From: a virus
Lineage: Duplodnaviria > Heunggongvirae > Uroviricota > Caudoviricetes
IMG/VR virus record: IMGVR_UViG_2879770953_000001
Strand: one strand, 5' to 3'
Length of the DNA stretch: 15,296 bases
A model generated the notes under the pieces. The model did no database searches. It saw only the letters and a program-made list of their open reading frames with translations, and had not been told where the DNA came from. How positions within the stretch are numbered: the stretch's first letter is position 1; every line of letters starts with the position of its first letter. The position numbers and the translations under genes are program-made. This document shows positions 2,299-6,603 of the stretch, piece after piece.

Positions 2299-2569
2299 TA
2301 TTAGCTCCTTCTGATGCCATTCTATTTCAGGAAGGAGTGTCCGTTAAACTCAGGCTACCTCAAACGCCCGTGCCGGTGTGCCGGGCAGCGATGAGGAAAC
2401 CCGTGCGGACTTTGAAAACCGCCGACGTAATTCAGTTGCCCGTAATGCCCGGAATATTCTGGAAGCCATCCGGGGTGAAATACTCTCCACGGTAGAAAAC
2501 GTGGTGGATGTTTAGGTAATGCTGCCAACTTACTGATTTAGTGTATGATGGTGATTTTAAGGTGCTTGC

Positions 2570-2845
2570 GTGGCTTCCATTTCCATCAGATGTCCTTCCT
2601 GCTCCGCTACTGAAGGCGTGGTGCGTAACGGCAAAAGCACTGCCGGACATCAGCGCTATCTCTGCTCTCATTGCCGTAAAACATGGCAACTACAGTTCAC
2701 TTACACCGCCTCTCAGCCCGGTACGCACCAGAAAATCATTGATATGGCCATGAATGGCGTCGGATGTCGCGCCAGTGCACGCATTATGGGCGTTGGCCTC
2801 AACACGGTTTTACGTCACTTAAAAAACTCAGGCCGCAGTCGGTAA
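2570..2845 (+). CDS. insA: IS1 InsA
   Basis: 91-aa ORF (GTG start) with the InsA zinc-finger/HTH sequence ...[36 protein letters not shown]... Confidence 0.9.
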
Positions 2846-3267
2846 CCTCGCGCATACAACCGGGCAGTGATGTGATTGTCTGCGCTGAAATGGACGAACA
2901 TTGGGGCTACGTCGGTGCTAAATCACGTCAGCGCTGGCTGTTTTACGCGTATGACAGGATACGGAGGACGGTTGTGGCGCACGTCTTCGGTGAACGCACT
3001 CTGGCCACACTGGAGCGTCTTCTGAGCCTGCTGTCGGCCTTTGAGGTCGTGGTATGGATGACGGATGGCTGTCCGCTGTATGAATCACGCCTGAAGGGAA
3101 AGCTGCACGTTATCAGCAAGCGTTACACTCAGCGCATTGAGCGACATAATCTGAATCTGAGACAACATCTGGCAAGGCTGGGACGGAAGTCACTGTCGTT
3201 CTCAAAATCGGTGGAGCTGCATGACAAGGTCATCGGGCATTATCTGAACATAAAACACTATCAGTAA
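2764..3267 (+). CDS. insB: IS1 InsB (transposase catalytic part, made as an InsAB' frameshift fusion)
   Basis: 167-aa ORF in the -1 frame relative to insA, with the characteristic IS1 InsB sequence. Confidence 0.9.
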
Positions 3268-3645
3268 GTTGGAGTCATTACCGATGTTTACGTCACCCAT
3301 AATCCGAAAAAAACAGAACAAAAAGCCGGAGTCAGTCAGTATCCATTAACACCCGGTTCGCTTTATGTTGGCGTGTACGGCGGCAGCCCGGCAGATATCG
3401 CGGCGGCCATCTGGCGTAAGGCTCCGCCGGGTATTGATATGAATGGCAACACAACGTTCACTGTTGCAGATAAGGAGTACGATCCGCCGTATCCTGAATA
3501 CGTGATCAGCTGGCAGACACTCAAACCCGTCAGTCTGCATGTCAGTGTGACGCTGAAAAAAAGGTAAGCGCCCCATCAGCGACGTCTTGTGAAAATTGTC
3601 CTGTCTGGCAACAATCGCGCCCATCTATATTGATGGACACGAACG

Positions 3646-3849
3646 ATGAATTCCCAGACAACAAAAGATATTCCCTGCTTCCGTTCTTATTTGCCTGATG
3701 CCCTGCGTTTAAGATTTGAAGATAAACTGACCATCCGGGCCATCGCTCAGCGTCTGGGTCTCAGTCATTCCACAATACATACGCTTTTTCAGCGATTTCT
3801 TGCATCCGGTATCGCATGGCCATTGCCCGATTCAGTTTCATTCGCTTAA
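3646..3849 (+). CDS. Small HTH-like ORF in the left arm of the IS66-family element; function uncertain
   Basis: 67-aa ORF from the track (MNSQTTKDIPCFRSYLPDALRLRFEDKLTIRAIAQRLGLSHSTIHTLFQRF...). The LTIRAIAQRLGLSHSTIHT segment looks like a helix-turn-helix. My base-by-base reading of its 3' end disagreed with the track by one base. Confidence 0.35.
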   Translation: MNSQTTKDIPCFRSYLPDALRLRFEDKLTIRAIAQRLGLSHSTIHTLFQRFLASGIAWPLPDSVSFA

Positions 3850-3913
3850 CTTGACGCCATCCTTTATGCCAACAGAAAGAAGGAATTAACAGAGCCTCAA
3901 ATCAGAGAAGGCT

Positions 3914-4320
3914 CATGGCGAAAAGAACGGCGAACCAGCTATAGCCGTGAATTTAAGGTCCGTCTGGCTAAGCAGGCGTTACAGCCTGGGGCTGTTGTTG
4001 CCCGGATCGCCAGAGAACACGATATCAATAATAACCTGCTGTTTAAATGGAAAAGCCAGTACGAGGACGGCTTACTGAGCGATGATGACATACAGGAATG
4101 CATGCCTGTCCCGGTGGCACTGACTGATACGCCGGAGCCGACCAGACCAGTTACAAATCCCTTCTGGCGTAACAAGCATGATGAGCGCCCTGAGGGGGCT
4201 CCCGGAAACGTCCCACGGTGCGAGCTGCATCTTAAATCAGGTGTGGTAAAACTGTTTGACCCTCTCACTCCGGAACTGTTACGGGCGCTAATCCGCGAAA
4301 TGAAAGGGGGTATCCGATGA
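3914..4320 (+). pseudogene. IS66-family tnpA, frameshifted near its 5' end
   Basis: ATG at about 3914 encodes MAKRTANQL then stop. The rest of TnpA (YSREFKVRLAKQALQPGAVVARIAREHDINNNLLFKWKSQYEDGLL...GGIR*) continues in another frame; an apparent 1-nt insertion lies near 3938. The track lists only the internal Met ORF 4102..4320. Confidence 0.6.
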
Positions 4321-4664
4321 TAACGCTGCCGACCGGTACCAAAATCTGGATCATCGCTGGCATCACAGATATGCGTTGTGGCTTCAATGGCCTGGCTTCG
4401 AAGGTGCAGAACACGCTGAAAGATGACCCGTTCTCCGGGCATATCTTCGTCTTCCGGGGCCGCAGTGGCAAAATGGTGAAAATACTGTGGGCCTATCGTG
4501 ACGGGTTATGCCTGTTCGCCAAACGCCTGGAACGGGGCCGCTTCGTCTGGCCGGTGACCCGGGAAGGGAAAGTGCACCTGACGCCAGCTCAGTTATCCAT
4601 GCTACTGGAGGGGATCGCGTGGCAACATCCCAAACGGACAGAACGGCCTGGCATCCGGATATAA
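4317..4664 (+). CDS. IS66-family TnpB (Orf2)
   Basis: 115-aa ORF with conserved IS66 Orf2 sequence (MITLPTGTKIWIIAGITDMRCGFNGLASKVQ...). Start overlaps the tnpA stop (ATGA). Confidence 0.85.
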   Translation: MITLPTGTKIWIIAGITDMRCGFNGLASKVQNTLKDDPFSGHIFVFRGRSGKMVKILWAYRDGLCLFAKRLERGRFVWPVTREGKVHLTPAQLSMLLEGIAWQHPKRTERPGIRI

Positions 4665-4683
4665 CCCGTGATAAAACAAGGGA

Positions 4684-6285
4684 ATGAACAATGAACTCCC
4701 CGATGATATTGAGCTGCTTAAAGCCATGTTGCGTAAGCAACAGAGTCGGCTTCGACAGTATGCCTGTCAGGTCGCGGGCTATGAGCAGGAAATTGAACGG
4801 CTGAAAGCGCAACTCGACAGGTTGCGTCGTATGTTGTTCGGCCAGAGTTCAGAGAAAAAGCGTCATAAGCTTGAAAATCAGATCCGACAGGCAGAAAAAC
4901 GACTGTCGGAACTGGAAAACCGGCTGAACACAGCCAGAAATCTTCTGGAAGATGCATCGTCAGTCACAGATTCACCTGACACCAGTCCCCCGTCAGAAAA
5001 CCCGATCGCCAGTAAGCCTGAATCCCCGGGACGAAAATCTTCACGAAAACCGCTGCCGGCAGAACTTCCCCGGGAGACACATCGCCTTCTGCCTGCTGAA
5101 ACCAGTTGCCCGGCCTGTGGAGGTGTTCTGAAAGAAATGGGGGAAACAATCTCAGAGCAACTGGATATCATTAATACCGCCTTTAAAGTTATCGAAACCA
5201 TACGTCCCAAACTGGCCTGTAGCCGGTGTGATGTCATCGTTCAGGCACCACTTCCCCCTAAACCGATCGAACGCGGTTATGCCAGTGCAGGGTTACTTGC
5301 ACGGATCCTGGTCAGCAAATATATGGAACATATCCCTTTATATCGCCAGTCAGAAATATACGCGCGACAGGGCGTGGAGCTGAGCCGTAATACCATGGTG
5401 CGCTGAGTATCAGAAATGGCAGACAAACTCCGTCCTCTGTATATAGCGCTGAATGACTATGTTCTGGAGGCAGGAAAGGTGCACGCAGATGACACTCCGG
5501 TGAAAGTACTGGCCCCGGGGAACGGAAAGACGAAAACGGGTCGTCTGTGGGTATACGTCAGGGATGATCGTAATGCGGGTTCATCCCTGCCGGCAGCCGT
5601 CTGGTTCGCGTATTCGGCAGATCGCAAAGGAGAACATCCGCAGCTCCACCAGGCAAAGTATCAGGGCGTACTGCAGGCTGATGCCTATGCAGGTTATAAC
5701 GTACTGTACGAAACGGGCCGGGTGAAGGAAGCCGGGTGCCTGGCCCACGCCCGCCGAAAAATCCATGACGAGGATGTGCGCCGTCCGACAGAAATGACTC
5801 AGGAAGCGCTCAGACGGATAGCAGAGTTATACGACATAGAAGCGGAGATACGTGGCAGTCCGGCAGAGGAACGGCTTGCAGTCAGAAAAGCCAGAAGCGT
5901 CCAGTTGATGCAGTCGTTGTACGACTGGATACAGTTGCAGAGGAAAACGCTGTCGAAACATGCGGAGATGGCGAAGGCGTTCGACTATATCCTGAATCAC
6001 TGGAATGCGCTGAACGAGTTCTGTCGTGACGGCTGGGTGGAAATAGACAACAACATCGGTGAAAACGCGTTACGATCGGTGGCGGTTGGAAGAAAAAATT
6101 ATCTCTTTTTCGGCTCAGACAAGGGAGGAGAAAGTGCGGCGATCATCTACAGTCTGCTGGTCACCTGCAAACAGAACGAAGTGGAGCCGGAGGACTGGTT
6201 GCGCGAAGTGATCGAGAAGCTCAATGACTGGCCGTCGAACCAAGTGCATGAACTGCTGCCCTGGAACTTCTCGTCTGTAAAATAA
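4684..6285 (+). pseudogene. IS66-family transposase TnpC interrupted by an in-frame TGA
   Basis: Track ORFs 4684..5406 and 5416..6285 are in the same frame, separated by TGA at 5404-5406 (...[19 protein letters not shown]...). Coiled-coil N-terminus, CPACGG zinc-finger-like motif and conserved C-terminal domain are present. Confidence 0.75.
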
Positions 6286-6603
6286 TCCTTACGCTACGTA
6301 CTTCTCGGGGCGCTTACAAAAAAAGTGACTACCTGCCTTCAGATATTACCCGACAGGTACAGCAATCCGTGCTGGACGCATTTAATGGTACAGATGGTGG
6401 TCTGCGGGCAAGAGTTGCCTCTGTTGTCTCTGCCGGGCGCTACTATGCCGGCATTTACAAAACCGATCCGGAACATATTGATATTCTGGGCCTTACTGTG
6501 AGCCGTGACGGTTCGTCATGGACAACGGCTGTCACTTTCGGGATAGATGAGATTCCGGTTCTGGATGTGTCGGATATCAGTGTGAAACTCCAGGAGGCAT
6601 AAC

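Follow-up and report, generated by a model that had tools for sequence, protein, structure and literature searches.

Insertion sequences in a truncated baseplate J gene of an ipaH-carrying Shigella flexneri prophage

The locus and the genomes compared

The stretch of DNA analyzed here, in the following called the window, comprises 15,296 nucleotides of tailed-phage sequence (Caudoviricetes; IMG/VR record IMGVR_UViG_2879770953_000001). Our subject is the interval 2363-6602, in which the reading frame of a phage tail gene is interrupted by two insertion sequences (ISs), IS1 and the IS66-family element ISSfl3. An original prediction, made from the letters of the sequence, had described this interval as a once-intact tail gene carrying two intact insertions that can be cleanly excised in silico. 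The interval and the sequence to its left are arranged as listed below, where L001 denotes the corresponding locus of the enteroinvasive Escherichia coli (EIEC) strain VL40 (NZ_CM177011.1).

1 to 1098, plus strand: 5' part of a prophage tyrosine integrase gene (366 of 465 codons), cut by IS600, beside yfhL
1099 to 2362, minus strand: IS600 (IS3 family), 1264 bp, with orfA (100 aa) and orfB (272 aa) open
2363 to 2514, plus strand: baseplate J/gp47 pseudogene, segment 1, starting at codon 181 of a 413-codon gene; 98.7% identity to L001 14001-14152
2515 to 3282, plus strand: IS1, 768 bp, with insA (2570-2845) and insB (2764-3267) open and an A6C frameshift motif at 2819
3291 to 3563, plus strand: baseplate J/gp47 pseudogene, segment 2; window positions 3283-3563 are 100% identical to L001 14145-14425
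3564 to 6317, plus strand: ISSfl3 (IS66 family), 2754 bp, with tnpA (3646-4320), tnpB (4317-4664) and tnpC (4684-6285)
6326 to 6602, plus strand: baseplate J/gp47 pseudogene, segment 3, ending at the TAA codon 6600-6602

Positions 8511-15296, the sole part of the window compared with CP026098.1, are 100% identical to this sequence of Shigella flexneri FDAARGOS_74, a serotype 3a strain (PMC9455713), and the left part of the window differs from S. flexneri FDAARGOS_713 (CP054892.1) at 2 of 11,101 bases. In genomes of this type, lepA, rnc, era, recO, pdxJ, acpS and yfhL are the upstream neighbors of the locus, and yfhH, tadA and mltF follow downstream. The locus most likely belongs to a temperate myovirus-type prophage of approximately 52 kb that carries the type III effector gene ipaH and is located between yfhL and yfhH in S. 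flexneri. All long contigs retrieved with the truncated integrase, and most of those retrieved with the 77-aa terminal open reading frame, show the arrangement integrase/IS600/J/IS1/J/ISSfl3/J. At least ten independent assemblies contain the integrase/IS600/J/IS1/ISSfl3 arrangement, and the carriers include strains published as S. flexneri serotypes 3a/3b (PMC9455713, PMC6424224).

Since no close relative of the prophage was found in the phage collection, where the best match to the J gene had 51.5% amino acid identity, the comparison of prophages was based on E. coli and Shigella chromosomes. The ipaH prophage of EIEC VL40 has the same integration site and shares the genes for integrase, baseplate J, DUF2612, tail fibre, tail fibre assembly, ipaH and pin, with a DNA identity of 97.5-100%. 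It differs by keeping approximately 41 kb with genes for replication, lysis, head and tail together with an intact J gene, and it has its own set of ISs, namely IS1A in the integrase gene, ISEc11, IS600 in a DUF3383 gene and an IS2 copy 48 bp from the IS2 site of the window. Two further genomes are discussed below, a sister assembly (CP102218.1, here L035) and S. flexneri J17B (CP100042.1, here L040).

The interrupted frame and its identity

When the three segments 2363-2514, 3291-3563 and 6326-6602 are joined, the resulting 702 nt form a single open frame of 233 codons followed by TAA, and the remaining two frames contain stops throughout. Extended to position 7300, the rebuilt DNA aligned in one piece with uninterrupted loci in seven EIEC genomes (98.8-99.4% identity over 1400 nt), and the single-copy empty target sites GTGGTGGATGTTTACGTCACCC and GACGCTGAAAAAAAGTGACTACC are both present verbatim in VL40. 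In a tblastn search against phage genomes, residues 1-230 of the rebuilt protein were collinear across both junctions with baseplate J proteins at 44-52% identity (best 51.5%). The original prediction of IS1 and an IS66-family element inserted into one frame, each with an 8-bp duplication and with approximately 233 codons restored by their removal, was correct in coordinates, repeats and codon count, and both comparisons that it had proposed, with phage baseplate proteins and with genomes lacking the insertions, agree with the rebuilt frame.

The rebuilt protein matches PHROG 6 (baseplate wedge subunit) with E = 5e-23 and, when compared with the C-terminal part of the VL40 protein, shows a single difference in 233 residues. 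A Pfam search with the 233-aa fragment by itself gave no match; a full-length homologue (99% identical) matches PF04865 with E = 7e-13, the Baseplate_J domain covering residues 90-241. In VL40, the full-length gene (L001 13461-14702; 1242 bp, 413 aa) is annotated as baseplate J/gp47 and is flanked by a sheath-initiator gene and the DUF2612 wedge gene. Matches to the baseplate J/gp47 family were thus obtained with PF04865 for the full-length homologue, and with PHROG 6 and phage baseplate J proteins for the fragment. Unlike complete members, the copy in the window retains only residues 181-413 of 413, and the IS600 cut at residue 181 falls within the Baseplate_J domain. Judged from these alignments, what remains in the interval is not a whole baseplate J/gp47 gene but its 3'-terminal 56%. 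The proposal that the insertions hit a once-intact gene therefore has to be revised, because the frame lacks the first 180 residues, the 5' end having been lost together with approximately 41 kb at IS600, and because of the order of events that L035 indicates (see below). Nothing at the locus works as a tail gene.

IS1 and ISSfl3

Identical 8-bp repeats, GATGTTTA, adjoin IS1 on both sides (2507-2514 and 3283-3290). With its length of 768 bp, terminal inverted repeats of approximately 23 bp (20 of 23 positions match), insA and insB' with an A6C site for -1 frameshifting, and a target duplication in the range of 8-9 bp, the element has all hallmarks of IS1, and it is 99.9% identical to the isoform that is widespread in E. 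coli and Shigella. A single base differs from the widespread copies annotated as IS1 family transposase, namely G>T at 3072, by which the Trp of the transposase stretch MTDGWPLY is replaced with Cys. Besides this substitution, the copy deviates in having a duplication of 8 bp and not the commoner 9 bp. For IS1, duplications of both 8 and 9 bp have been reported. The reading frames of IS1 are open with one missense change.

ISSfl3 has the ends GTAAGCGCCCC...GGGGCGCTTAC, of which the outermost 11 nt are perfectly inverted. The 8-bp repeats AAAAAAAG adjoining it (3556-3563 and 6318-6325) are identical, and VL40 has the corresponding single-copy empty site. Over all 2754 bp, the element is 99.6-99.8% identical to PGAP-annotated ISSfl3 of S. 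flexneri. Its gene products match the Pfam families HTH_Tnp_1, TnpB_IS66 (E = 1.6e-37) and zf-IS66/LZ/DDE_Tnp_IS66 (E = 3.6e-79), and the gene order tnpA-tnpB-tnpC, a DDE_Tnp_IS66 transposase, GTAAGCG ends and the 8-bp duplication place it in the IS66 family. In the papers searched for ISSfl3, the element is mentioned only in passing. At both elements, the duplications proved identical at their exact coordinates, and these clean junctions bear out the view that IS1 and ISSfl3 are simple insertions without later rearrangement.

The claim that both insertions are intact does not hold for ISSfl3. A base-by-base comparison with a reference copy (99.6% identical; annotated with full-length tnpA of 224 aa, tnpB, and tnpC of 533 aa) revealed 11 substitutions, two of which are nonsense mutations. 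C>T at 3847 converts CAA to TAA (3847-3849) and thereby Gln68 of tnpA to a stop, and G>A at 5406 converts TGG to TGA (5404-5406) and thereby Trp241 of tnpC to a stop, at which the Pfam DDE_Tnp_IS66 domain is split. An autonomous copy has all transposition genes open, and this one does not; it is non-autonomous and would now move only if transposition proteins were supplied in trans. The two premature stops, in codon 68 of tnpA and codon 241 of tnpC, are what distinguishes this copy from other ISSfl3 copies. Sister genomes with ISSfl3 at the same site differ in these positions as follows.

L005, L006 and L008: no stop at 3847, no stop at 5406
L007 and L009: stop at 3847, no stop at 5406
L004 and the window: stop at 3847, stop at 5406

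As the state of both codons varies among genomes that share the insertion site, the stops must have arisen after ISSfl3 had inserted.

In S. flexneri J17B, the region L040 3045-8726 adjoins lambdoid phage genes and an ABC-3 transporter and contains an ISSfl3 copy with all three genes open. This copy has a truncated IS600 on one side and a J fragment on the other, and the tail fibre gene of J17B is without IS2. L040 represents the same tail module in a copy that was rearranged independently.

IS600 and the truncated integrase

The integrase piece at 1-1098 has 99.5% identity with the initial 1098 nt of the 1398-nt integrase gene that adjoins yfhL in E. coli XH993 and 98.5% identity with the prophage integrase of VL40. 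Its match to Pfam Phage_integrase is restricted to profile positions 14-117 of 172. The adjacent IS600 matches HTH_Tnp_1 and rve and shares 99.6% identity with the element annotated as IS600 in VL40. Both IS600 and the IS2 copy described further below show the characteristics of the IS3 family, i.e. orfA/orfB, an rve integrase core and TG...CA ends, except that IS600 is without its 3-bp duplication: the adjoining triplets are AAA at its left end and AAC at its right end. The original prediction had correctly placed IS600 (1099-2362) at the 5' boundary and IS2 (8095-9425) in the tail fibre gene; its count of four different IS families stands for the number of elements, whereas the number of families is three, as IS600 and IS2 are both annotated as IS3-like by PGAP.

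In VL40, a single prophage between yfhL and yfhH contains both positions that correspond to the breakpoints in the integrase and J genes, at a distance of 41,333 bp in which the IS copies of VL40 itself are counted. The lack of a target duplication is consistent with a junction formed by deletion and not by simple insertion, and IS600 marks the junction of a deletion of approximately 41 kb that comprised the prophage DNA between integrase and J. IS3-family elements transpose through a circular copy-out/paste-in intermediate, and for this reason we favor recombination between two IS600 copies in the same orientation as the likely cause of the deletion.

Order of events and alternative explanations

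The sister assembly L035 has integrase/IS600, IS600/J and tail-fibre/IS2 junctions that are identical to those of the window, but its IS1 site is exactly empty and ISSfl3 is lacking. The parsimonious order is therefore that the truncation and IS2 came first, and the J gene was probably already dead when IS1 and ISSfl3 landed. The best explanation for the locus as a whole, to which we assign a probability of approximately 0.88, is an IS600-linked truncation of the prophage, followed by insertion of IS2, by insertion of IS1 and ISSfl3 into the dead fragment and finally by point decay. The first step is an IS600-linked deletion of approximately 41 kb, reaching from the interior of the integrase gene to codon 180 of J, for which the missing target duplication and the comparison with intact relatives are the evidence. 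IS2 would then have inserted into the tail fibre gene. In a sub-lineage, IS1 and ISSfl3 would each have entered the non-functional J fragment by one transposition and generated the 8-bp duplications; the position of this step in the sequence of events is deduced from the sister genome, which has undergone the first two steps but not the third. Point decay would comprise the 1-bp deletion in the DUF2612 gene, the nonsense mutations in tnpA and tnpC of ISSfl3 and the missense mutation in the IS1 transposase. Seen in this way, the ISs inserted neutrally into DNA that was dead, next to an ipaH gene that has been kept intact.

Several observations speak against this reconstruction or limit its resolution. 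The order of events is based on one assembly type, consisting of L035 plus one similar place. In L035, the J fragment lacks 4 bp and its ISSfl3 site has a run of 6 A and not 7, differences that could be sequencing errors or real drift. The states at 3847 in ISSfl3 and 3072 in IS1 occur in all four combinations among the sister genomes, indicating that gene conversion between IS copies or recurrent mutation was involved and blurring the order of the point mutations. An ordering of the IS1 and ISSfl3 point mutations along a single tree was rejected for this reason, and we claim only that they arose after insertion. Finally, recombination between two IS600 copies and intramolecular transposition are not distinguishable from the sequence.

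The order implied by the original prediction, in which IS1 and ISSfl3 inactivated an intact and functional baseplate gene and the IS600 truncation came later, would accommodate the cleanness of both insertions as well as the little drift that a single difference in 233 residues from the intact EIEC protein indicates. However, it would require two independent precise excisions to account for L035, which has the IS600 truncation and IS2 without IS1 and ISSfl3, and none of the compared genomes has either element in a full-length J gene, so that we regard this order as quite improbable. An assembly artefact, in which IS copies were misplaced and the gene is really uninterrupted or otherwise arranged, deserves mention because IS copies are repeats that assemblers often misjoin. 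With identical junctions and duplications in at least ten assemblies from several projects and platforms, and with exact target duplications and matching empty sites elsewhere, which are the signature of true transposition, we consider its likelihood negligible.

Somewhat less remote, although still unlikely in our view, is a non-neutral origin of the IS clustering. Selection might have favored disabling integrase, baseplate and tail fibre, thereby locking ipaH in the chromosome and preventing lytic induction, or the region might contain insertion hot spots. Integrase, baseplate J and tail fibre genes were hit independently in S. flexneri and EIEC, in some cases 42-48 bp apart, which could result from convergent selection for immobilizing and disarming the prophage with ipaH kept, or from regional hot spots. 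In VL40, IS2 lies in the same tail fibre gene and in the same orientation (L001 16162-17492), 48 bp upstream of the S. flexneri IS2 site, and its duplication CAAAA instead of TCCGC in the window identifies it as an independent insertion; IS1A in the VL40 integrase gene is located 43 bp from the S. flexneri IS600 breakpoint. In J17B, the end of ISSfl3 adjoins the J fragment 42 bp downstream of the ISSfl3 site in the window. The presence of four IS copies in approximately 9 kb of non-IS DNA compares with an expectation of approximately 0.6 (P roughly 0.003-0.006) in a rough Poisson estimate with 229-348 ISs per chromosome of approximately 4.6 Mb (PMC7373316), which is not a formal test as the window was chosen post hoc. 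The persistence of an intact ipaH is likewise compatible with selection. Against these points stands that neutral evolution would also lead to a build-up of ISs in a dead prophage, from which insertions are not purged, and that IS1 and ISSfl3, having landed after the module was destroyed, were not selectable for inactivating it. Moreover, only a handful of lineages entered this comparison.

Stepwise truncation with subsequent neutral insertions agrees with what is known about Shigella genomes. Reference chromosomes of Shigella contain 229-348 IS copies, mostly of IS1, IS2, IS4, IS600 and IS911, and ISSfl3 (printed as "ISSlf3") is among the ISs listed for S. flexneri (PMC7373316). Interruption by ISs and IS-linked deletion are recognized as main routes of gene loss (PMC7373316), and chromosomal ipaH copies were described as surrounded by prophages and pseudogenes (PMC9046306). 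In the papers searched, nothing was found on an ipaH island together with a prophage. The locus shares with IS-driven Shigella genome degradation (Hawkey et al., 2020, PMC7373316) the elements IS1, IS2 and IS600, the S. flexneri element ISSfl3, gene interruption and IS-linked deletion, and we see no difference of substance: the locus is one instance of the process. The original prediction of IS-driven reductive evolution is thus well founded, the region being a textbook case of IS-associated decay in Shigella. The phenomenon is already known in kind and the locus sits in published genomes; mildly unusual are only the expanded poly-C tract described below and the ISs that inserted independently in EIEC at nearly the same positions. 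What the locus offers is a fully resolved stepwise dismantling of an ipaH-delivering Shigella prophage, through a 41-kb IS-linked deletion, secondary IS hits and decay of the IS copies themselves. It also illustrates that a frame restored by in-silico excision is no proof that the insertion killed the gene. The practical value lies in a correct annotation of pseudogenes and mobile elements at this locus, with little importance beyond annotation.

Neighboring genes downstream

To the right of the J fragment, the tail module continues with the following features.

6604 to 7208, plus strand: DUF2612 baseplate-wedge gene, inactivated by the loss of one base from a run of C at 6691 (C5 to C4)
7195 to 9916, plus strand: tail fibre gene split by IS2; a frame of 461 codons is open again once the element is excised
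8095 to 9425, minus strand: IS2 (IS3 family), 1331 bp, with a 5-bp duplication TCCGC at 8090-8094 and 9426-9430

The Pfam match of the DUF2612 gene is split across two frames. The indel was seen in comparison with VL40, and the gene is intact in L035 (201 aa). IS2 has open orfA and orfB frames, as has IS600, and shares 99.6% identity with the element annotated as IS2 in VL40. The following region 10488-12331 is more diverged from VL40 than other parts of the window (approximately 96% identity); it includes a gene with a prophage tail-fibre N-terminal domain that stops after 230 codons (TAG at 11178-11180) compared to 421 aa in VL40, and, in the start region of a DUF4376 gene, a T run that is longer by one base at 11828.

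IpaH is encoded intact on the minus strand at 12511-14337 (608 aa; LRR_TTSS and NEL E3 ligase domains). The gene is thus opposite in strand and lies between the tail-fibre/DUF4376 genes and pin. In invertible tail-fibre segments of the Mu/P1 type, alternative inverted fibre genes would occupy the position that is held here by ipaH. The AT-rich spacer between ipaH and pin contains a perfect 16-nt inverted repeat, AATGTACTGTTTTTTT / AAAAAAACAGTACATT, with a 4-nt loop at 14697-14732, which may be a candidate bidirectional terminator.

A run of 35 C at 14782-14816 is located approximately 40 nt upstream of the start codon of pin, a DNA invertase gene. The same site has 6-7 C in EIEC VL40, CP000034.1, HE616528.1 and other assemblies sharing the locus; the run reaches 23 C in two CAJFB* assemblies, 30 in FDAARGOS_713 and the full 35 in FDAARGOS_74. 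The tract has the appearance of a genuine homopolymer expansion, variable in length, within one S. flexneri lineage. The pin gene itself (14856-15296; pin/pinE-type serine invertase) ends prematurely after 146 codons (..KLSPE, then stop), and the copy in VL40 is annotated with an internal stop. An identical 146-aa product was found in 756 blocks of the assembly collection, including chromosomes of 4.4-5.2 Mb such as CP000034.1 and HE616528.1, indicating an old and widely shared inactivation of the invertase.

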